Shown: positions 1-8,454 of the stretch, one piece after another
Numbering within the stretch: the stretch's first letter is position 1
Layout of the letters: each line of letters opens with the position of its first letter
From: a virus
Virus record (IMG/VR): IMGVR_UViG_3300024299_000002
Reading direction: 5' to 3' (one strand)
Length of the DNA: 8,454 nucleotides
Notes under the pieces: generated by a model
The model's database searches: none
What the model saw: only the letters and a program-made list of their open reading frames with translations
Told to the model about the DNA's origin: nothing
Made by a program: the position numbers and the translations under genes

Positions 1-65
1 CCGTAGATAAAACTCATAAGTTTAATTCTACTGCACCAATTCAACGCGGTGGACTTAGACTATAA
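1..65 (+). CDS. ORF8: 3' end of the small basic ORF8/J-like DNA-binding protein (5' part lies outside the window)
   Basis: Identical to 4157..4221, the tail of the complete 39-aa ORF. Codon phase begins at nt 3. TAA at 63..65 lies 3 nt before the Rep ATG. Confidence 0.6.
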   Translation, partial: VDKTHKFNSTAPIQRGGLRL

Positions 66-68
66 GTC

Positions 69-1025
69 ATGCCTTGCTATCACCCGCTAAAGGCTTACCG
101 CAGAACAGACTGTAATACTCTATCCTTTAATAAAAATGGACAATACACGAATATTGCAGCACCTCTCTCCCTACCTTGTGGCCAATGCACTGGCTGTAGA
201 CTCGAAAGGTCTAAACAATGGGCAATACGATGCGTACACGAAGCATCTCTCTATGAAAAAAATTGCTTCATCACACTTACCTACAACAACGAAAACCTAC
301 CTAAAGACTTTTCTTTAAATAAACGCGACTTTCAGCTCTTCATGAAACGCCTTAGAAAAGCACACTCTAATAAAACCATAAGATTCTACCATTGCGGAGA
401 ATATGGCGAACCTACAGAATTCAATAACTACGTCGCCAGACCTCACTATCACGCAATAATATTCAATCATGAATTTAAAGACACTACCTTATGGAAAACT
501 AAACGAGGAACAAAATTATATACCTCACCAGAACTAGAACGCCTATGGCCTCAAGGCTTCTCAACTATCGGTACCGTAACCTACGACTCCGCAGGATATG
601 TCGCTAGATACTTACTAAAAAAACTTAACTTATCCGATAAATCTTCACCCGGCGTTAAAGAACGCCATCAAAAACAATACACACACGTAGACCGTAAAAC
701 CGGGGAAGCATTCCCCCTCTTACCAGAATACACAACTATGTCTAGAAAACCCGGCATCGCCCGTGCATGGTTCGAAAAATGGGGAAAAGACGTCTTTCCA
801 AACGACTCTGTCGTAATGCAAGGAAAAGAACGCACCGTCCCCAAATTCTATGATACAATCTATCAAAACAACGAACCTGAAAAATTCGATATAATAAAAC
901 AAAAGAGGGTCAAAAATATGCAAAAACACGCTAAAGATAATACCCCCGATCGCCTCGCAAGCAAAGAGATCGTAAAAACTGCGCAGATAGGAAAACTGTA
1001 TCGTGAATACGAACAATCTAATTAA
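69..1025 (+). CDS. VP4: VP4 replication initiation protein (HUH rolling-circle endonuclease), 318 aa
   Basis: N-terminus MPCYHPLKAY is typical of gokushovirus VP4. It has FITLTY (motif 1), HYH at nt 444..452 (motif 2), and YVARY with two Tyr spaced as in phiX174 protein A (motif 3). There is also a CGQCTGC Cys cluster. Confidence 0.95.
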   Translation: MPCYHPLKAYRRTDCNTLSFNKNGQYTNIAAPLSLPCGQCTGCRLERSKQWAIRCVHEASLYEKNCFITLTYNNENLPKDFSLNKRDFQLFMKRLRKAHSNKTIRFYHCGEYGEPTEFNNYVARPHYHAIIFNHEFKDTTLWKTKRGTKLYTSPELERLWPQGFSTIGTVTYDSAGYVARYLLKKLNLSDKSSPGVKERHQKQYTHVDRKTGEAFPLLPEYTTMSRKPGIARAWFEKWGKDVFPNDSVVMQGKERTVPKFYDTIYQNNEPEKFDIIKQKRVKNMQKHAKDNTPDRLASKEIVKTAQIGKLYREYEQSN

Positions 1026-1053
1026 TTACTTAAAACTATCTCAAAGGAAAATT

Positions 1054-1311
1054 ATGAAACTTAATATCTATTCAATGTATGACCAAGCGGCACAAGCTTA
1101 TTTACCTCCCGTTTATTTAGAAAACGACAACGTCGCAAAACGGGCAATACAAAACGCTGTCAATACTCAAGATCATCAATTCAACCAAAATCCGGCAGAC
1201 TATACCCTATTTCACTTAGGTGAATGGGACGACTGCACGGCTACTATAACAATGCTAAAAACCCCCAATGTTCTTGCTAAATGCAATGAACTACTAACAA
1301 TTACGGAGTAA
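1054..1311 (+). CDS. VP5: VP5-like small non-structural protein (ssDNA synthesis/packaging role in gokushoviruses), 85 aa
   Basis: It sits between VP4 and VP1, as VP5 does in gokushoviruses. I chose the ATG at 1054 because AAAGGA lies 6-9 nt upstream. The track start at 1003 would overlap the Rep 3' end and has no RBS. Confidence 0.7.
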   Translation: MKLNIYSMYDQAAQAYLPPVYLENDNVAKRAIQNAVNTQDHQFNQNPADYTLFHLGEWDDCTATITMLKTPNVLAKCNELLTITE

Positions 1312-1315
1312 TACT

Positions 1316-2881
1316 ATGAAGTCAGTCATGTCACACAAGTTCAGCGAAATTCCAAAAGCTGATATCCAACGCTCAAAATTCGACCGTTCACACGGCTTAA
1401 AAACTACATTTGATGCGGGAAACTTAGTTCCAATGTTCACCGATGAAGTTCTACCTGGTGATACATTTAACTTACGCACGACTGCTTTCGCACGATTAGC
1501 AACACCCCTATTCCCTCTAATGGACAACATGTTCATGGAAACACACTATTTTTTCGTACCCAATAGATTACTTTGGGACAACTTTAAAAAATTCCACGGT
1601 CAACAAGACAACCCCGCAGACTCTATCGACTTCACAGTACCTACTATGACTTCAACTGGTACTGGCTATGCTAATGAATCACTACACGACTACTTCGGAA
1701 TACCAACTCAAGTATCTGGCCTAGAACACATTTCACTATATCACAGAGCATACAACCTAATTTATAATGAATGGTTTCGTGACGAAAACCTTCAAGACTC
1801 TGTAACAGTAGATAAAGATAATGGCCCAGATAATCCAAACGACTACACACTACTAAAACGTGGCAAAAGACACGACTATTTCACATCAGCACTACCATGG
1901 GCGCAAAAAGGCGATTCCGTTAATCTTCCTTTAGGATTAAAAGCGCCTGTCGCTTCTGATAATTCTTCTTATCTTACGGGTAGCACTTATACAGACGGAC
2001 ATGGAATTCTATTACCTAATATTGATACAGCTAATCATGCTTTAGCTGCGAATAGTTATTATACATATGCAAACACGGGTACAACTGCAGACGCAAACAT
2101 GCTATATGCAGACTTATCGTCAGCAACATCTGCAACAATCAACCAACTACGCCAAGCCTTTCAAATACAACGCTTATTAGAGCGCGATGCTCGCTCGGGC
2201 ACAAGATATACAGAAATCATTCGCTCACACTTTGGCGTAACCTCTCCAGACTCAAGACTTCAACGCAGTGAATACCTAGGCGGTGGATCATCAATGGTAG
2301 ATATCTCACCAATTCAGCAAACCTCTGAATCAACTGCCGCATCACCTCAAGGTACACTAACTGCACAAGGAACTGCCAATCTACACAATCATGGCTTCAC
2401 AAAATCCTTTACAGAACACGGAGTCATCATCGGATTAATCTCCGTTCGTGCAGACTTAACATATCAACAAGGACTAAATAGACGCTTCTCGCGTCAAACT
2501 CGCTACGATTACTACTACCCAGTACTAGGTAACATCGGCGAACAAACAATCCTTAATAAGGAAATATGGGCTGATGCATCAGCTAACGACGAACTCGTAT
2601 TCGGCTACCAAGAACGATATGCAGAATATCGCTACGAACCATCAAAAATCACTGGCAAGTTCAGATCAAATGATGCCGCGTCATTAGACGGCTGGCACTT
2701 ATCTCAAGACTTCGCCACTCTACCCGTACTCGGGGATACCTTTATTAAAGAAACTCCTCCAATAGCACGTGTCGTTGCTGTACCAAGCGAACCAGAATTC
2801 ATTCTCGACTGCTATCACCAATTGTCATGTGCTAGACCAATGCCAATTTATGCCGTTCCTGGCATGATGGATCACTTCTAA
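1316..2881 (+). CDS. VP1: VP1 major capsid protein, 521 aa
   Basis: The N-terminus SVMSHKFSEIPKADIQRSKFDRSHGLKTTFDAGNLVPMFTDEVLPGDTF closely resembles Chlamydia phage, SpV4 and phiMH2K VP1 as I recall them. GGAG lies 7 nt upstream of the ATG. Confidence 0.97.
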   Translation: MKSVMSHKFSEIPKADIQRSKFDRSHGLKTTFDAGNLVPMFTDEVLPGDTFNLRTTAFARLATPLFPLMDNMFMETHYFFVPNRLLWDNFKKFHGQQDNPADSIDFTVPTMTSTGTGYANESLHDYFGIPTQVSGLEHISLYHRAYNLIYNEWFRDENLQDSVTVDKDNGPDNPNDYTLLKRGKRHDYFTSALPWAQKGDSVNLPLGLKAPVASDNSSYLTGSTYTDGHGILLPNIDTANHALAANSYYTYANTGTTADANMLYADLSSATSATINQLRQAFQIQRLLERDARSGTRYTEIIRSHFGVTSPDSRLQRSEYLGGGSSMVDISPIQQTSESTAASPQGTLTAQGTANLHNHGFTKSFTEHGVIIGLISVRADLTYQQGLNRRFSRQTRYDYYYPVLGNIGEQTILNKEIWADASANDELVFGYQERYAEYRYEPSKITGKFRSNDAASLDGWHLSQDFATLPVLGDTFIKETPPIARVVAVPSEPEFILDCYHQLSCARPMPIYAVPGMMDHF

Positions 2882-3399
2882 TGAGTCTACTATCATCAAT
2901 AACCGGAGGTCAATGGCTAGGAGCCGCTGCAGGCTTCCTCGGCCAACGCTCCGCTAATAAAGCCAACTCCGCGCAAGCGGCACGCTCGATGGACTTCCAA
3001 CGAGAAATGGCACAAAAAGCACATCAATATGAGGTCGCAGACCTCAAAAAAGCTGGCTTAAATCCCTTACTCTCAGGAACTGGAGGTAAAGGCGCGTCCG
3101 CATCTGGCGGCGCACAAGCCAAAATAGAAAACGAAGTAAACTCAGCTATGACTACTAAACTTCTACAAGCACAAATCAATAAACTCAACGAGGAAACCGA
3201 GGTACTTAAAGGCGGTGTACCCGCCAAAACAATCGGAACTAAACCACTCGCAGACTTCAAAGAATTTGTCGTAGACAAACGCGATAGCGCTTTTTCAGCT
3301 TATAATCTAAAAAAAGAAAAAGAAAGAAATACAATACTTCACCCACCACGTAAAGACGGCTTAACCCGTCGCTCATATAAACCAGGCTACGGCCGCTAA
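2881..3399 (+). CDS. VP2: VP2 minor capsid / DNA pilot protein, 172 aa
   Basis: The ATG overlaps the VP1 stop (TAATG), which suggests translational coupling. The position after VP1 fits VP2. It has a Gly/Ala-rich core LLSGTGGKGASASGGAQAK and a following coiled segment. Confidence 0.8.
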   Translation: MSLLSSITGGQWLGAAAGFLGQRSANKANSAQAARSMDFQREMAQKAHQYEVADLKKAGLNPLLSGTGGKGASASGGAQAKIENEVNSAMTTKLLQAQINKLNEETEVLKGGVPAKTIGTKPLADFKEFVVDKRDSAFSAYNLKKEKERNTILHPPRKDGLTRRSYKPGYGR

Positions 3400-3411
3400 G
3401 GAGAATAAAAA

Positions 3412-3891
3412 ATGAAACGAACAAACGGAACAAAACGATATCAAATCAAATTCGACCAAGACGACGGCCGAACTCAACAACATCAAAAAGATGAATGTGA
3501 TATCAATCTCATCATCAAACGCCATACTCCAGAGCAAATTGCTCTAATGGCTACACAAAACGAAGGCCAATATGGCGACGCAACTTCCGTCGACTATCAT
3601 GCCGCACAAAACATTATCGCAAACGCGAATACAATGTTTAATGATCTTCCATCGGAAATCAGAAATCAATTCGACAATGATCCTGCTACCTTCTTAGACT
3701 TCACATCTAATGAAGAAAACTACGCAGAAATGCGCAAAATGGGCATCATGTCACCAGAAGTAAATACTACTTCTTCTGAATCAATTGTGAGCGAAGCGAA
3801 CCCGCCGAAGGCGAATAGCGCAAGCGGAAATGCTCCGCAGGAACCATCGGTAGATCGCGTCGAAGACGCGCCTAAAACAGTTACCACTTGA
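3412..3891 (+). CDS. VP3: VP3 internal scaffolding protein, 159 aa
   Basis: AAGGAG RBS lies upstream and the gene follows VP2. The N-terminal 113 aa are conserved between units. The stop TGA (3889..3891) lies inside the loop of the downstream stem-loop. Confidence 0.85.
   Translation: MKRTNGTKRYQIKFDQDDGRTQQHQKDECDINLIIKRHTPEQIALMATQNEGQYGDATSVDYHAAQNIIANANTMFNDLPSEIRNQFDNDPATFLDFTSNEENYAEMRKMGIMSPEVNTTSSESIVSEANPPKANSASGNAPQEPSVDRVEDAPKTVTT
3856..3870 (+). other. GC-rich hairpin CGCGTC-GAA-GACGCG, inside the VP3 coding tail in unit A
   Basis: Perfect 6-bp inverted repeat read directly from the sequence. It is positionally equivalent to the hairpin at 8126..8142 in unit B, but the stem sequence differs. 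Confidence 0.6.
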
Positions 3892-3900
3892 TGTAACTGT
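3877..3900 (+). promoter_or_regulatory. Candidate (+)-strand origin: 8-bp stem ACAGTTAC/GTAACTGT with loop CACTTGAT
   Basis: Perfect 8-bp inverted repeat. The loop contains ACTTGAT, identical to the core of the phiX174 gene-A cleavage site (CAACTTG^ATATT). It is identical in unit B. Confidence 0.5.
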
Positions 3901-3931
3901 ATGGAGTGACACCGTATAGGTGGAACTCCAT
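3901..3931 (+). other. Compound hairpin ATGGAGT-GA-CACC-GTATA-GGTG-GA-ACTCCAT
   Basis: A 7-bp outer stem and a 4-bp inner stem are separated by symmetric GA/GA internal mismatches. It directly abuts the ori-like hairpin, is followed by an A-rich tract, and is identical in unit B. Confidence 0.55.
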
Positions 3932-3962
3932 TAAAAAAAACTAAAAAAGGAACAAAAAAATA

Positions 3963-4076
3963 ATGCAATACTTACTAATAAAAATACTACTAGGAATGCT
4001 AAAAACAACCCTAATTCCTTTACTAACTAAATTTCTTGAAAAGAAATTAAAACAACTTGACATCGACAAGCTATAA
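3963..4076 (+). CDS. Hypothetical 37-aa hydrophobic/amphipathic cationic peptide MQYLLIKILLGMLKTTLIPLLTKFLEKKLKQLDIDKL
   Basis: The ORF is not in the supplied track (too short). It is intact in both units, with AAGGA about 11 nt upstream. Three nt differences in 114 nt give 2 synonymous changes and 1 Leu->Ile. The A-rich spacer just upstream differs at 6 or more of 34 positions. Confidence 0.35.
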   Translation: MQYLLIKILLGMLKTTLIPLLTKFLEKKLKQLDIDKL

Positions 4077-4077
4077 T
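4049..4077 (+). promoter_or_regulatory. Possible promoter for ORF8-VP4: perfect -10 TATAAT (4072..4077) with weak -35 AAAACA at 17-bp spacing
   Basis: TATAAT is conserved in unit B (8343..8348). The upstream region is A/T-rich. The host is unknown, so the sigma-70 model may not apply. Confidence 0.2.
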
Positions 4078-4101
4078 CAAATAAACCAACGGAGAAATAC
4101 C

Positions 4102-4221
4102 ATGAAACGTAGAACAAAACTATCTAAATCAAAATCTCGTAAATACTTCAAAAAAACCGTAGATAAAACTCATAAGTTTAATTCTACTGCACCAATTCAA
4201 CGCGGTGGACTTAGACTATAA
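4102..4221 (+). CDS. ORF8: ORF8/J-like small basic DNA-binding (packaging) protein, 39 aa: MKRRTKLSKSKSRKYFKKTVDKTHKFNSTAPIQRGGLRL
   Basis: 14 of 39 residues are Lys or Arg. GGAG RBS lies 8-11 nt upstream. It sits immediately upstream of VP4, as ORF8 does in Chlamydia-phage-type genomes. It is not in the supplied track (too short). Confidence 0.7.
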   Translation: MKRRTKLSKSKSRKYFKKTVDKTHKFNSTAPIQRGGLRL

Positions 4222-4224
4222 GTC

Positions 4225-5238
4225 ATGCCTTGCTATCACCCGCTAAAGGCTTACCGCAGAACAGACTGTAATACTCTATCCTTCAACAAAAATGGACAAT
4301 ACACGAATATTGCAGCACCTCTCTCCTTACCTTGTGGCCAATGCACTGGCTGTAGACTCGAAAGGTCTAAACAATGGGCAATACGATGCGTACACGAAGC
4401 ATCTCTCTATGAAAATAATTGCTTCATCACACTTACCTACAACAACGAAAACTTACCTAAAGACTTTTCTCTAAATAAACGCGACTTTCAACTCTTTATG
4501 AAACGCTTAAGGAAAAAATACGTCCCTACAAATCCATACGATAAAAAAACACAAGAAGATCAATATAATCAATTTCATAAAAAACATGAAATACGCTTCT
4601 ATCATTGCGGCGAATATGGCGAACCAACAGAATTTAACAATTACGTCGCCAGACCTCATTATCACGCAATAATATTCAATCACAAATTCAAAGATGAAAC
4701 TCTATGGAAAACTAAAAGAGGGACAAAACTATTCACATCAGCAGAACTCGAAGAGCTTTGGCCAAAAGGCTTCTCAACAATCGGAACTGTAACGTACGAC
4801 TCCGCAGGATATGTCGCACGCTACCTATTAAAAAAACTTAACTTATCCGATAAATCCTCACCTGGCGTAAAAGAACGCCATCAAAAACAATACACACATA
4901 TAGACCATCAAACTGGGGAAACATTCCCCCTCTTACCAGAATACACAACTATGTCTAGAAAACCCGGCATTGCCCGTGCATGGTTCGAAAAATGGGGAAA
5001 CGACGTCTTTCCAAACGACTCTGTCGTAATGCAAGGAAAAGAACGTACCGTCCCTAAATTCTATGATACAATCTATCAAAACAACGAACCTGAAAAATTC
5101 GATATAATAAAACAAAAGAGGGTCAAAAATATGCAAAAACACGCTAAAGACAATACCCCCGATCGGCTCGCAAGCAAAGAGATCGTAAAAACTGCGCAGA
5201 TAGGAAAACTGTATCGTGAATACGAACAATCTAATTAA
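4225..5238 (+). CDS. VP4: VP4 replication initiation protein (HUH Rep), 337 aa, with a 19-aa net insertion relative to unit A
   Basis: Same motifs as unit A (FITLTY, HYH, YVARY). The extra segment KYVPTNPYDKKTQEDQYNQFHKKHE lies between motif 1 and HUH. Confidence 0.95.
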   Translation: MPCYHPLKAYRRTDCNTLSFNKNGQYTNIAAPLSLPCGQCTGCRLERSKQWAIRCVHEASLYENNCFITLTYNNENLPKDFSLNKRDFQLFMKRLRKKYVPTNPYDKKTQEDQYNQFHKKHEIRFYHCGEYGEPTEFNNYVARPHYHAIIFNHKFKDETLWKTKRGTKLFTSAELEELWPKGFSTIGTVTYDSAGYVARYLLKKLNLSDKSSPGVKERHQKQYTHIDHQTGETFPLLPEYTTMSRKPGIARAWFEKWGNDVFPNDSVVMQGKERTVPKFYDTIYQNNEPEKFDIIKQKRVKNMQKHAKDNTPDRLASKEIVKTAQIGKLYREYEQSN

Positions 5239-5269
5239 TTACTTAAAACTATCTCAAAGGAAAAACAAT

Positions 5270-5527
5270 ATGAAACTTAATATCTATTCAATGTATGACC
5301 AAGCGGCACAAGCCTACTTACCACCCGTATACTTAGAAAACGACAACGTCGCAAAACGGGCAATACAAAACGCTGTCAATACTCAAGATCATCAATTCAA
5401 CCAAAACCCGGCAGACTACACCCTATTTCACCTTGGTGAATGGGACGACTGCACGGCTACTATAACAATGCTTAAAACACCTAACGTTCTTGCGAAATGC
5501 AATGAACTACTAACAATTACGGAGTAA
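5270..5527 (+). CDS. VP5: VP5-like protein, 85 aa
   Basis: The amino-acid sequence is identical to unit A from MKLNIYSMYDQ onward. The 3-nt indel lies upstream of this ATG, which supports the internal start. Confidence 0.7.
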   Translation: MKLNIYSMYDQAAQAYLPPVYLENDNVAKRAIQNAVNTQDHQFNQNPADYTLFHLGEWDDCTATITMLKTPNVLAKCNELLTITE

Positions 5528-5532
5528 TTACT

Positions 5533-7137
5533 ATGAAGTCAGTCATGTCACACAAGTTCAGCGAAATTCCAAAAGCTGATATCCAACGCTCAAAATTCGA
5601 CCGTTCACACGGTTTAAAAACTACATTTGACGCGGGAAACCTAGTACCAATGTTCACCGACGAAGTATTACCTGGTGATACATTTAACTTACGCACGACT
5701 GCCTTCGCACGACTAGCAACACCCTTATTCCCTTTAATGGACAATATGTTCATGCAAACTCACTATTTTTTCGTACCCAATAGACTACTTTGGGACAACT
5801 TTAAAAAATTTCACGGTCAACAAGACAACCCAGACGACTCTATTGACTTCACAGTTCCTATCATGACGTCAACTGCTTCAACTGGTTATGCTAATGAATC
5901 ATTACATGATTACTTAGGAATACCAACACAAGTCGCGGACTTAGATCACATCTCACTATATCACAGAGCTTACAACTTAATTTACAATGAATGGTTTCGT
6001 GACGAAAACCTACAAGACTCTGTTGTCGTAGACAAAGATAATGGCCCCGACTCACCAACAGACTATGTACTATTAAAACGTGGCAAAAGACACGACTACT
6101 TTACATCAGCACTACCATGGGCACAAAAAGGCGATTCAGTTGGCTTACCTTTAGGTGTTACTGCACCCGTTTACGGTGACGGAAAAAATTTAGGCTTAAC
6201 TGATGGAGTAACTAATTTTGGTCTAACCTCTGTAGGCACTAAAGAATTTCGCGGTATTACCGGAAATTATGGCGGCAATATTGGTACAACTCCAAATACT
6301 GGTACTTGGAATCCAGCAGATACCTCTTTCGGTGTTGTTGAAACTGGAACCTCTGGATTAGTCGCAGACTTAACAACAGCAACTGCCTCAACAATCAATC
6401 AACTACGCCAAGCTTTTCAAATACAACGCTTACTAGAGCGTGACGCTCGAAGCGGAACAAGATACACAGAAATCATTCGCTCACACTTTGGCGTAACTTC
6501 ACCAGACTCAAGACTCCAACGCTCAGAATATCTAGGCGGTGGATCATCAATGGTAGACATCTCACCAATTCAGCAAACTTCTGAATCAACTGCCGCATCA
6601 CCTCAAGGTACACTAACTGCACAAGGAACAGCCAATTTACATAATCATGGCTTTACTAAATCCTTTACAGAACACGGAGTTATTATCGGACTAATCTCCG
6701 TTCGTGCAGACTTAACTTACCAACAAGGACTAAACAGACGCTTCTCGCGTCAAACTCGCTACGATTATTATTACCCTGTACTAGGGAACATCGGCGAACA
6801 AACAATCCTAAATAAGGAAATATGGGCTGACGCATCAGCTAACGACGAACTCGTATTCGGCTACCAAGAACGATATGCAGAATATCGCTACGAACCATCA
6901 AAAATCACTGGCAAGTTCAGATCCAATGATGCCGCGTCATTAGACGGCTGGCACTTATCTCAAGACTTCGCCACACTACCCGTACTCGGGGATACCTTTA
7001 TCAAAGAAACACCACCAATAGCACGTGTCGTCGCTGTACCAAGCGAACCAGAATTCATTCTCGACTGCTATCACCAATTGTCATGTGCTAGACCAATGCC
7101 AATCTATGCCGTACCTGGCATGATGGATCACTTCTAA
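5533..7137 (+). CDS. VP1: VP1 major capsid protein, 534 aa
   Basis: Collinear with unit A VP1. The C-terminal ~245 aa are identical in amino-acid sequence. The central loop cannot be aligned with unit A. Confidence 0.97.
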   Translation: MKSVMSHKFSEIPKADIQRSKFDRSHGLKTTFDAGNLVPMFTDEVLPGDTFNLRTTAFARLATPLFPLMDNMFMQTHYFFVPNRLLWDNFKKFHGQQDNPDDSIDFTVPIMTSTASTGYANESLHDYLGIPTQVADLDHISLYHRAYNLIYNEWFRDENLQDSVVVDKDNGPDSPTDYVLLKRGKRHDYFTSALPWAQKGDSVGLPLGVTAPVYGDGKNLGLTDGVTNFGLTSVGTKEFRGITGNYGGNIGTTPNTGTWNPADTSFGVVETGTSGLVADLTTATASTINQLRQAFQIQRLLERDARSGTRYTEIIRSHFGVTSPDSRLQRSEYLGGGSSMVDISPIQQTSESTAASPQGTLTAQGTANLHNHGFTKSFTEHGVIIGLISVRADLTYQQGLNRRFSRQTRYDYYYPVLGNIGEQTILNKEIWADASANDELVFGYQERYAEYRYEPSKITGKFRSNDAASLDGWHLSQDFATLPVLGDTFIKETPPIARVVAVPSEPEFILDCYHQLSCARPMPIYAVPGMMDHF

Positions 7138-7652
7138 TGGGTTGGCTGGAAGGATTAGGCGCGGGAGCTTTAGGCTTCCTCGGCCAAAGATCCGCTAATA
7201 AAGCCAACTCCGCGCAAGCGGCACGCTCGATGGAATTCCAACGAGAAATGGCTAAAAATGCACATCAATACGAGGTCGCAGACCTCAAAAAAGCTGGCTT
7301 AAATCCCTTACTCTCCGGAACTGGAGGTAAAGGAGCGTCCGCATCTGGCGGCGCACAAGCCAAAATCGAAAACACAGCTAACTCAGCTATGACTTCCAAA
7401 CTACTAAATGCACAAATCAATAAACTAAACGCTGAAACTTCAGCCGTTCAAGGCGGTATACCCGCCAAAACGTTCGGCACAGATTTTATGGACTGGCTAG
7501 GCGAAGCCTATCAAGGATCAGCCACTAAAAACTTGTTAGACAAGTGGAACGATTACACCGCTACACAAAATAATTCCGCTAAACAAGGCTATAATAAAAA
7601 CAAAAAACTACGAATATACATAAATAAATCAAAAGAAGACCTCGCTAAATAA
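7137..7652 (+). CDS. VP2: VP2 minor capsid / DNA pilot protein, 171 aa
   Basis: TAATG overlap with the VP1 stop. The core (GFLGQRSANK...PAKT) is conserved with unit A. The N-terminal 12 aa and C-terminal 56 aa are unrelated to unit A. Confidence 0.8.
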   Translation: MGWLEGLGAGALGFLGQRSANKANSAQAARSMEFQREMAKNAHQYEVADLKKAGLNPLLSGTGGKGASASGGAQAKIENTANSAMTSKLLNAQINKLNAETSAVQGGIPAKTFGTDFMDWLGEAYQGSATKNLLDKWNDYTATQNNSAKQGYNKNKKLRIYINKSKEDLAK

Positions 7653-7663
7653 AGGAAATTATC

Positions 7664-8122
7664 ATGAAAAGAACAAACGGCACAAAACGCTTCCAAATCA
7701 AATTCGACCAAAACGACGGCCGAACCCAACAACATCAAAAAGATGAATGTGATATTAATCTCATCATCAAACGCCACACTCCAGAGCAAATCGCTCTAAT
7801 GGCTACACAAAACGAAGGCCAATATGGCGACGCAACTTCCGTCGACTATCATGCCGCACAAAACATTATTGCAAACGCAAATACAATGTTTAACGAATTA
7901 CCTTCGGATATCCGAAACCAATTCAATAATGATCCCGCAATCTTCTTAGATTTCACATCTAATGAAGCTAACTATCCCGAAATGATAGAAATGGGCATCA
8001 TGACTCAACCAGACGTTCAAGATAGAACACCTATCACTTCTGAACCAACTGTGAGCGTAAGCGAACCCGTCAGCAAAGCTGACGATAGCGCTAGCGTAAA
8101 TGCCTCGCAGAGTACGTCGTAA
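7664..8122 (+). CDS. VP3: VP3 internal scaffolding protein, 152 aa
   Basis: The first 113 aa are collinear with unit A and the C-terminal tail has diverged. It stops at 8120..8122, 3 nt before the GC hairpin. Confidence 0.85.
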   Translation: MKRTNGTKRFQIKFDQNDGRTQQHQKDECDINLIIKRHTPEQIALMATQNEGQYGDATSVDYHAAQNIIANANTMFNELPSDIRNQFNNDPAIFLDFTSNEANYPEMIEMGIMTQPDVQDRTPITSEPTVSVSEPVSKADDSASVNASQSTS

Positions 8123-8125
8123 GAC

Positions 8126-8145
8126 CGCCCCGAATAGGGGCGTTT
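8126..8145 (+). terminator. Hairpin CGCCCC-GAATA-GGGGCG followed by TTT (intrinsic-terminator-like)
   Basis: Perfect 6-bp GC stem (8126..8131 / 8137..8142) with TTT at 8143..8145, immediately after the VP3 stop. The T-run is short. Confidence 0.4.
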
Positions 8146-8147
8146 AA

Positions 8148-8171
8148 ACAGTTACCACTTGATGTAACTGT
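8148..8171 (+). promoter_or_regulatory. Candidate (+)-strand origin stem-loop (unit B copy), loop CACTTGAT
   Basis: Identical to 3877..3900. It is fully non-coding in this unit. Confidence 0.5.
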
Positions 8172-8202
8172 ATGGAGTGACACCGTATAGGTGGAACTCC
8201 AT
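8172..8202 (+). other. Compound hairpin (unit B copy)
   Basis: Identical to 3901..3931. Confidence 0.55.
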
Positions 8203-8233
8203 AAAAAACCACTAAAAAAAGGAATAAAAAACA

Positions 8234-8347
8234 ATGCAATACTTACTTATAAAAATACTACTAGGAATGCTAAAAACAACCCTAATTCCTTTAATAACTA
8301 AATTTCTTGAAAAGAAATTAAAACAACTTGACATCGACAAGTTATAA
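8234..8347 (+). CDS. Hypothetical 37-aa hydrophobic/amphipathic peptide (unit B copy, L21I)
   Basis: Same frame, length and stop position as 3963..4076. Confidence 0.35.
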   Translation: MQYLLIKILLGMLKTTLIPLITKFLEKKLKQLDIDKL

Positions 8348-8348
8348 T
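8320..8348 (+). promoter_or_regulatory. Possible promoter (unit B copy), -10 TATAAT at 8343..8348
   Basis: Positional equivalent of 4049..4077. Confidence 0.2.
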
Positions 8349-8372
8349 CAAATAAACTAACGGAGAAATACC

Positions 8373-8454
8373 ATGAAACGTAGAACAAAACTATCTAAAT
8401 CAAAATCTCGTAAATACTTCAAAAAAACCGTAGATAAAACTCATAAGTTTAATT
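8373..8454 (+). CDS. ORF8: 5' part of the ORF8/J-like basic protein (runs off the window end)
   Basis: Identical over the 82 nt available to 4102..4183. Same GGAG RBS. Confidence 0.65.
   Translation, partial: MKRRTKLSKSKSRKYFKKTVDKTHKFN
8428..8454 (+). repeat. Start of a third unit; exact 27-nt copy of nt 1..27 and 4157..4183
   Basis: The string ccgtagataaaactcataagtttaatt occurs at 1, 4157 and 8428. Confidence 0.95.

Follow-up and report, generated by a model that had tools for sequence, protein, structure and literature searches.

The window analysed here is an 8,454-nucleotide (nt) stretch of viral DNA (IMG/VR virus record IMGVR_UViG_3300024299_000002) that holds two related gokushovirus genomes in tandem (units A and B), and each unit carries, at or shortly beyond the end of the scaffold gene VP3, the same hairpin, which presents the heptamer ACTTGAT in its loop and is followed on its 3' side by the box TGACACC. 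We propose that this element is probably the viral-strand (double-strand) rolling-circle replication origin of gokushoviruses and that it is nicked in the loop by VP4, the replication initiator protein (Rep) of these phages. It is the best candidate yet for the gokushovirus replication origin, which was previously unmapped. An earlier note on this DNA, made from its letters alone, had taken the hairpin for a candidate gokushovirus (+)-strand origin; conservation, covariation, strand and spacing, as far as sequence comparison can speak to function, support that reading, and the comparison adds features that were absent from the note, namely the TGACAC(C) box, a second hairpin and lineages in which the element is inverted.

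Results

Using positions 3850-4110 of the window as the query in a BLAST search of 50,697 phage records, we obtained matches in 168 records, and in all 30 of these 168 that were listed the match was confined to window positions 3868-3925. Since the whole genomes of the matched microviruses are only ~65% identical to the window, the element is conserved far beyond its neighbouring sequence. Three further samples gave the same picture (L numbers denote individual genomes of the comparison). Among 33 IMG/VR contigs chosen by similarity of their Rep protein (36-99% identity), every complete contig had the hairpin with the same loop, counting a diverged candidate that was identified manually in L031. 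A scan of IMG/VR with the exact pattern CTTGATGTA, 8-16 nt, TGACAC returned, among the matches listed, mostly circular contigs of 4-5 kb with fixed spacing. In 70 further genomes selected by capsid homology only, and hence blind to the element, a covariance model of the element (R1) found a match at an expect value (E) of <0.01 in 58; seven of the other 12 contain recognisable weaker variants, and three of the remaining five are fragments. Homologous elements are at hand in more than 150 other microvirus genomes, and the hairpin with ACTTGAT in its loop, which the earlier note had proposed to look for in other gokushoviruses, proved near-universal in the sampled Gokushovirinae, including Chp2, phiMH2K and SpV4. 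The Chp2 element (CTAGCGTATAACAG-TCTACTTGAT-CTGTTATACGCTAG GTGATAGC) lies at 2902-2954, between VP3 and ORF8. That of phiMH2K, at 3294-3346, has an 11-bp stem and a loop ..CTACTTGTTGTAA with the variant ACTTGTT. The same variant is found in the 10-bp hairpin of SpV4 (NC_003438, L155; TGGGGCATAT-ATTACTTGTTATA-ATATGCCCCA TTGACGAC), which was missed by the covariance model and lies at 516-550, directly downstream of the Rep gene; a candidate at 1636-1668 of SpV4 was dropped in favour of this far better one. When 12 GenBank microviruses were graded by capsid identity, the model matched seven, whose capsids are 31-50% identical to that of the window, and a hairpin scan recovered a variant element in phi-CA82 (29% capsid identity). 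No convincing element was found in four microviruses of ~6 kb, PQ006847 (L285), OR148996 (L287), NC_040375 (L288) and PP511526 (L289), among which NC_040375 offers only a loose candidate at 4491-4535 (12-bp stem, loop with ACTTGTT). All four encode long Rep proteins, and the origins of such ~6-kb long-Rep microviruses may differ or be too diverged. When VP1 DNA served as the query for a prophage of the enterogokushoviruses of Escherichia coli, the one genetically tractable system, nothing was matched.

The element is present once per genome unit and is always intergenic or touches a gene end. In ~90 of 105 genomes it stands just after VP3, whichever gene follows; elsewhere it is found after VP5 (phiMH2K, L031), after Rep (SpV4, KT264790) or in the interval between the pilot gene and Rep (MK765621, PP511327). 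In 103 of 105 and in 56 of 58 genomes the strand that carries it is that of the genes.

The anatomy of the element was determined from an alignment of 66 sequences (A1) and from the independent alignment of the capsid-selected genomes, which was fitted to the model. Across the family an outer, covarying stem of 7-12 bp encloses, in most relatives, a loop of 13-16 nt. The stem sequences differ completely between lineages and yet the pairing is kept (for example CTAGCGTATAACAG in Chp2 and TGGGGCATAT in SpV4). In A1 we counted 141 compensatory double-change cells compared to 57 ± 7 in shuffled alignments, and the covariation of 0.39 fell to ~0.10 when the pairing partner was slid by 1-3 columns; the corresponding values for the capsid-selected set were 146 cells compared to 57 and a covariation of 0.49 compared to 0.07-0.10. 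The covariation of the stem is strong and establishes its structure. The earlier note had described the stem as a perfect 8-bp pairing around an 8-nt loop, and folding bears this out for the window (-5.1 kcal/mol as DNA, z-score -3.2), but the stem that is common to the family is the outer, covarying one and not those 8 bp: the clade of the window has gained inner pairing, TTAC with GTAA, and lacks the outer pairs, and the 8-bp stem is a variant of this lineage. The GTAA sequence is kept even where it is unable to pair, for example in L016, and therefore seems to be read as sequence.

In contrast to the changing stem, the loop, 8-16 nt long across the family and with the 3' end (C/T)ACTTGATGTAA, has a nearly invariant core, CTTG(A/T)T. 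CTTGAT itself is present in 55 of 63 matches of the capsid-selected set, the variants seen being ACTAGAT, ACTTGTT/CTTGTT, ACTGGAT and ACTTGAC, and the G that precedes the proposed cut keeps its position in 62 of the 63, the exception being a weak match in L271. This loop core is common to phages of Chlamydia, Bdellovibrio and Spiroplasma and to environmental genomes, and its conservation across such different hosts points to a reader that is encoded by the phage rather than specific to the host. Directly 3' of the stem follows the box (N)TGACAC(C), in which T, G, A and A are invariant and the C positions near-invariant in A1; 60 of the 63 capsid-selected matches have TGACA(C/G), and the base that precedes TGACAC may be C, G, T or A. 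The distance from CTNGWT to the box is 14 nt in 42 of 60 sequences, 15 nt in 15 and 13 nt in two. In many genomes, though not all, GACAC(C/T) and a (G/A)GTGTC further downstream pair to form a second hairpin. No direct repeats of the kind known as iterons were found in positions 3800-4110 of the window, the single TGACACC box standing in their place.

The significance of the element comes from this comparison with distant genomes and not from the window. The exact 24-mer ACAGTTACCACTTGATGTAACTGT occurs twice in the window where shuffled sequences lead one to expect none, and the hairpin is indeed identical in both units, as had been claimed; however, this identity adds little because the units are relatives with 84% identity. 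ACTTGAT is found in the window only in the two loops, and in neither VP4 gene, but its chance expectation is 1.25 and at least two copies were seen in 68 of 200 shuffles. Similarly, unit A contains two perfect hairpins of at least 8 bp compared to 0.48 expected, a number reached by 23 of 200 shuffles. Both the 7-mer and the 8-bp hairpin are within chance, and an argument from the window alone was therefore rejected. The region of the element as a whole folds into three hairpins, with z-scores of -6.8 and -7.2 as DNA. The third of these is a G+C-rich hairpin upstream of the element, which has the same position and a different sequence in the two units; a G+C-rich hairpin is found there in most relatives too. 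It is probably a transcription terminator outside the core of the origin, and one that is exchanged rather than kept.

In unit A the VP3 stop codon is the TGA at 3889-3891, which lies within the ACTTGAT motif as the earlier note had observed, whereas VP3 of unit B stops at 8122, 26 nt 5' of the hairpin, so that the motif of unit B is non-coding. The proposal that identity between the units is highest around the hairpin did not hold, since windows of 100% identity are found in many other places (for example from 4096 to ~150, 844-933, 1320-1379, 2598-2657 and 3545-3604). The hairpin instead marks a sharp step, from 58-68% identity upstream, in the C-terminus of VP3, to 87-95% from the hairpin onwards and 97-100% further downstream. 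The divergent C-terminus of VP3 (3725-3876 compared to 7977-8147) is one of several islands of divergence with near-identical flanks, the others being 359-423, 1917-2147, 2868-2957 and 3198-3424; together they cover the insertion in VP4 of unit B, the variable loop of VP1, the N-terminus and the C-terminal half of VP2, and the C-terminus of VP3. The island in VP3 stops precisely at the element's 5' edge, which would fit modular exchange at the origin.

In seven independent genomes the hairpin and the box are inverted relative to all genes, and are still intergenic (Table 1). The four cases from IMG/VR have no nucleotide similarity to one another, and in one of them, L259, a terminator-like hairpin with a T-run keeps the orientation of the genes, so that the flip affects the element alone. 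Should the element be the origin, the strand packaged by these phages would be the antisense one. The inversions represent either novel biology or the strongest available objection to the origin model. They also argue against a role in RNA, and against a purely complementary-strand origin combined with a fixed nick site elsewhere.

The presumed trans-acting partner of the element is VP4. The two-tyrosine motif YVARY that had been noted in this protein was confirmed at amino acids (aa) 177-181, in the context GYVARYLLKK, and the histidine motif is HYHAIIF (aa 126); the counterparts in phiX174 protein A are FYVAKYVNKK, with the YVAKY tyrosines Y343 and Y347, and HFHAVHF. Each unit also encodes VP5, the VP1 capsid protein (PF02305), the VP2 pilot protein, a hydrophobic open reading frame (ORF) of 37 aa and a basic VP8/J-like protein of 39 aa. 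The 37-aa ORF (3963-4076 and 8234-8347; MQYLLIKILLGMLKTTLIPL(L/I)TKFLEKKLKQLDIDKL) sits between the element and VP8, is hydrophobic in its N-terminal half and keeps its reading frame with amino-acid changes in L001-L008, and it had no match in comparisons with Pfam and PHROG. It is a candidate membrane or lysis peptide; we know of no established lysis gene in gokushoviruses.

The window is a circular contig with a terminal overlap of 27 nt. Its two units form a mosaic of blocks that are 100% and blocks that are 25-60% identical. An independent monomer contig (IMGVR_UViG_3300024302_000371, L004) matches unit B at 99.2-99.97% identity, and unit A has its best matches, of at most 93.5% identity, in L001 and L005. 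The head-to-tail heterodimer is probably an assembly path through two co-occurring strains; it could conceivably also be a real heterodimer produced by faulty rolling-circle termination. Similar non-identical repeats are seen in the IMG/VR contigs L007, L134, L123, L244 and L278.

Table 1. Positions of the element and its surroundings in the window, and of inverted elements in other genomes
Feature	Position	Strand	Remarks
Unit A	1-4156		Gokushovirus genome
Unit B	4157-8427		Gokushovirus genome
Whole conserved element, unit A (5' flank, hairpin 1, 3' box)	3868-3918	+	Model R1 52.6 bits, E 3e-13
Whole conserved element, unit B	8139-8189	+	Model R1 52.1 bits
Hairpin 1, unit A	3877-3900	+	Stem ACAGTTAC/GTAACTGT, loop CACTTGAT
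Hairpin 1, unit B	8148-8171	+	Identical to that of unit A
Loop motif ACTTGAT, unit A	3886-3892	+	Predicted VP4 nick G3890/A3891, from phiX174 G4305/A4306
Loop motif ACTTGAT, unit B	8157-8163	+	Predicted nick G8161/A8162; non-coding
3' box TGACACC, unit A	3907-3913	+	Candidate Rep-binding ('key') sequence; 14 nt past CTTGAT
3' box TGACACC, unit B	8178-8184	+	Offset as in unit A
Hairpin 2, unit A (ATGGAGT..CACC gtata GGTG..ACTCCAT)	3901-3931	+	TGA of the box in internal loop
Hairpin 2, unit B	8172-8202	+	
Upstream G+C-rich hairpin, unit A (CGCGTC-GAA-GACGCG)	3856-3870	+	Inside VP3 3' end
Upstream G+C-rich hairpin, unit B (CGCCCC-GAATA-GGGGCG)	8126-8142	+	Then TTT; just past VP3 stop
VP4, HUH rolling-circle Rep, unit A	69-1025	+	Pfam PF23343, E 2e-21; PHROG 942, replication initiation protein, E 1.5e-111
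VP4 catalytic motifs, unit A	HYH 444-452; YVARY 597-611	+	Sequence motifs
VP4 Rep, unit B	4225-5238	+	Catalytic motifs as in unit A; 19-aa insertion
VP3 scaffold (PF09675)	A 3412-3891; B 7664-8122	+	
Inverted elements, IMG/VR	L090 90-115; L092; L259 4111-4164; L260 4171-4223		
Inverted elements, GenBank	KT264790 (L281) 3638-3690; PQ006448 (L283) 2021-2074; phi-CA82 NC_015785 (L286) ~2430-2480		

Discussion

A covarying hairpin with an invariant loop motif, in the same replicon as a gene for an HUH Rep, is what stem-loop origins of HUH Reps have in common, and we consider it probable that the element works in this way. HUH nucleases are known to cut single-stranded DNA only. In the mechanism that we propose, the inverted repeat would be extruded in the supercoiled replicative form, or would fold in displaced single-stranded DNA, and the loop (C/T)ACTTG^AT(G)TAA would thereby be presented as a single strand. 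VP4 would recognise the loop together with the box TGACAC(C) at its fixed distance, cut after the invariant G and, by way of one of the YVARY tyrosines, become attached to the 5' end, whereupon a host polymerase could extend the 3'-OH. After one round the second tyrosine would cut the regenerated hairpin in the displaced strand, which would be circularised for packaging. The binding of VP4, the position of the cut between G and A and the part of TGACACC as the binding determinant are predictions of this model.

Several points weigh against this interpretation. The phiX174 origin has no hairpin and is not detected by the covariance model, and a weight matrix made from loop, 3' arm and box of the gokushovirus element places it 8th of 10,772 positions (z-score ~+3.5) and not 1st, so that homology between the origins of phiX174 and gokushoviruses is suggestive only. 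GAC at the right offset could arise by chance with a probability of ~1/64 to 3/64. In some lineages positions of the heptamer vary (T4 to A, G or C, and A6 to T). Complementary-strand origins, too, look like a folded single-stranded hairpin whose loop is conserved, and because the motif of unit A overlaps the VP3 stop, slight local conservation there could be due to coding. Finally, the packaging of the antisense strand, which the seven inversions would require, has never been reported for Microviridae.

Among the alternatives, we considered whether the hairpin, folded in the incoming virion DNA, could be a complementary-strand origin that recruits RNA polymerase, primase or a PriA-type primosome of the host for the priming of the minus strand, in the manner of phiX174, G4, M13 and the ssoA of rolling-circle plasmids, the match to ACTTGAT being a coincidence. 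Such a function would fit the strong structure of the region with its three hairpins, the covariation of the stem, which speaks for function as a folded single strand, and the strand-specificity of the element in most genomes. In many copies the stem is followed by CTG, the start triplet of E. coli primase, although this CTG is not conserved because the base before TGACAC varies. Covarying intergenic hairpins of other small microviruses have also been read in this way (PMC9865509). Priming signals are, however, host-specific, whereas phages of Chlamydia, Bdellovibrio and Spiroplasma have this loop in common; the loop moreover equals the heptamer at which the homologous initiator of phiX174 cleaves, and the spacing of the box matches that in the phiX origin. 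If the nick were made elsewhere with fixed polarity, the seven inversions would have put the priming signal on the strand that is not packaged, which would be lethal. We thus regard a complementary-strand origin alone as unlikely, and a dual role, as both viral-strand and complementary-strand origin, as conceivable. It could also be that the element is a Rep origin but is cut 3' of the hairpin, in or next to TGACACC, and that the hairpin serves only for docking; conjugative relaxases and IS200/IS608 transposases likewise make their cut a few nucleotides away from a hairpin. A cut on the 3' side of a hairpin is known from other HUH enzymes, TGACAC equals the loop in invariance and stands directly 3' of the stem, and in many genomes the box is partly unpaired, in the internal loop of hairpin 2. 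Yet VP4 and phiX174 protein A are homologues whose catalytic motifs are nearly identical, and the cleavage heptamer of protein A corresponds to the loop and not to the box; mutational work by Baas and Jansz reportedly identified the 3' part of the phiX174 origin as a determinant of binding and not as the site of cleavage. A cut beside the hairpin is for these reasons rather improbable.

Roles outside the initiation of replication appear less probable still. A packaging signal or other protein-binding site, recognised for instance by the VP8/J-like protein or the procapsid, would account for an element that is conserved, present in a single copy and, in the window, next to the VP8 gene, and the phiX174 origin is also needed for packaging, as packaging is coupled to rolling-circle synthesis. 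To our knowledge, however, Microviridae have no sequence-specific packaging signal apart from the origin, and the loop matches an endonuclease cleavage site. The element likewise has no resemblance by eye to dif recombination sites as they are described, or to the E. coli dif consensus (two 11-bp arms). Such dif sequences, XerC/D sites of 28 bp in length, have been reported in only 48 metagenome-assembled gokushovirus genomes outside the enterogokushoviruses (PMC7062461), a rarity at odds with the near-universal element. Packaging or dif-like recombination is accordingly a very improbable explanation, and the one to which we give least credit is a role in the transcript, as stabiliser of the 3' end or terminator of the VP1-VP2-VP3 message or as a regulatory RNA structure. 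The position just downstream of VP3 in most genomes would suit it, and as all genes are on one strand an RNA copy would fold identically. But hairpin 1 is followed by ATGGAG and not by a U-run, a scan of positions 3400-4300 found no terminator on the + strand, and the separate G+C-rich hairpin upstream, in unit B with its TTT, makes the better terminator. Neither an invariant loop nor an invariant single-stranded box is a feature of terminators, the position shifts, other lineages having the element behind VP5, behind Rep or ahead of Rep, seven genomes have the element in the non-transcribed sense, and no Rfam family scored above threshold. The resemblance of positions 3879-3952 to the Rfam family RAGATH-12 (RF03149; 22.9 bits compared to a gathering threshold of 75) was treated as coincidence: it is driven by CACTT..AACTGT.TGGAGTG, it had no counterpart in 15 other gokushovirus genomes, and the core string of RAGATH-12 occurs chiefly in far larger phage contigs (most >10 kb, many ~100 kb) that are not recognisable as microviruses. 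The other Rfam matches (freshwater-2, veev_FSE and SAM-II) had E ~0.5. A reading of TGACA as the -35 box of a promoter was rejected too, since there was no promoter match at the element and the inverted copies argue against it; in some relatives, moreover, the next start codon is only ~30 nt from the element.

Taking the element as the viral-strand origin, we can extend the proposal to its inverted copies. Hairpin and box together may make up a movable, self-sufficient cassette for replication that determines by itself the strand to be displaced and packaged, in which case the seven flipped lineages would carry the antisense strand, with the corollary that the phiX174 origin would be a hairpin-less derivative embedded in gene A. 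We offer this extension tentatively and hold it to be possible but somewhat doubtful; if it were true, the flipped lineages would be the first negative-sense Microviridae. From the inverted copies follows a prediction, open to checking, as to which strand is packaged.

Few single-stranded DNA phages of gut, marine and freshwater viromes are as abundant and diverse as the gokushoviruses, and what is known of replication in Microviridae comes from phages of the phiX174 type. We met neither a gokushovirus origin nor this hairpin in the literature searched, which did not extend to the phiMH2K paper or to older work on Chp1, Chp2 and SpV4, so that an earlier mention is possible. An origin of ~45 nt with a predicted cut site can be tested with one oligonucleotide and one purified protein. 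It would give a natural zero coordinate and strand to thousands of metagenomic genomes, and could serve as the cis-element of gokushovirus phagemids or of vectors for the production of single-stranded DNA. The covariance model flags gokushovirus DNA independently of protein genes, and the element would link the origins of the two main microvirus lineages.

Among the closest known systems is that of phiX174 and the Bullavirinae, with a viral-strand origin of 30 bp. The phiX174 origin is made up of the recognition sequence CAACTTGATA, which is enough for single-stranded DNA to be cleaved, followed by a spacer rich in A+T and, on the right, a 'key' sequence for binding. The initiators are homologous and share the HUH and Y-x-x-x-Y motifs. 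The phiX174 record has the nick at 4305/4306, within CAACTTG^ATATTAATAACACTATAGACCAC as the earlier note had it, and the shared heptamer ACTTGAT is the cleavage site of the A protein and unique in the phiX174 genome; the window sequence CCACTTGATG at 3884-3893 matches eight of the ten bases of the recognition decamer. In phiX174 the gap from ACTTGAT to GAC is 15 nt, which is also the modal value in the gokushovirus element (42 of 60), although GAC and the last C are all that the 3' blocks have in common (GACCAC in phiX174 compared to GACACC in gokushoviruses) and GAC at that offset has a chance probability of ~1/64. The element and the phiX174 origin are both single-copy and lie on the viral, coding strand. 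They differ in that phiX174 has no hairpin and has the A+T-rich spacer where gokushoviruses have the 3' arm of the stem, the 15-nt interval in the window being taken up by the arm GTAACTGTATGGAG, which varies with compensating changes. The phiX174 origin is placed inside gene A, while the gokushovirus element, as had been pointed out, is intergenic or touches the VP3 stop; and unlike the phiX174 origin, the element is mobile in position and orientation between lineages.

In its architecture the element resembles the origins of circular Rep-encoding single-stranded (CRESS) DNA viruses, which have a nonanucleotide such as TAATATT^AC in the loop, and of rolling-circle plasmids (pMV158, pT181), in which an HUH Rep acts on a cleavage site that is presented in a loop, the stem covaries, the loop is invariant and the location is intergenic. 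The loop motif is a different one, however, the gokushovirus hairpin has no flanking iterons, the Reps of CRESS viruses have one tyrosine whereas VP4 is of the two-tyrosine phiX type, and, judged from sequence, one box 3' of the stem seems to be what determines binding. With complementary-strand origins (the PriA site of phiX174, the primase site of G4, M13 ori(-) and ssoA) the element shares a folded, strand-specific, intergenic hairpin region on the packaged strand and, with ssoA, a short conserved loop motif, but those origins are longer, host-specific and devoid of an initiator cleavage motif. Reekeekee- and roodoodooviruses, which belong to other clades of Microviridae, have covarying stems with conserved loops between Cap and Rep, for which the authors leaned towards a minus-strand origin while stating that they could not certify this role (Olo Ndela et al. 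2022, PMC9865509). They drew no connection from those hairpins to the phiX nick motif, and we liken the hairpins to the present element by description only. Overall, the gokushovirus element would represent a new form of origin, in which a nick motif of the phiX type is placed in the loop of a hairpin and a single box at a fixed distance takes the place of iterons or of an A+T-rich spacer.

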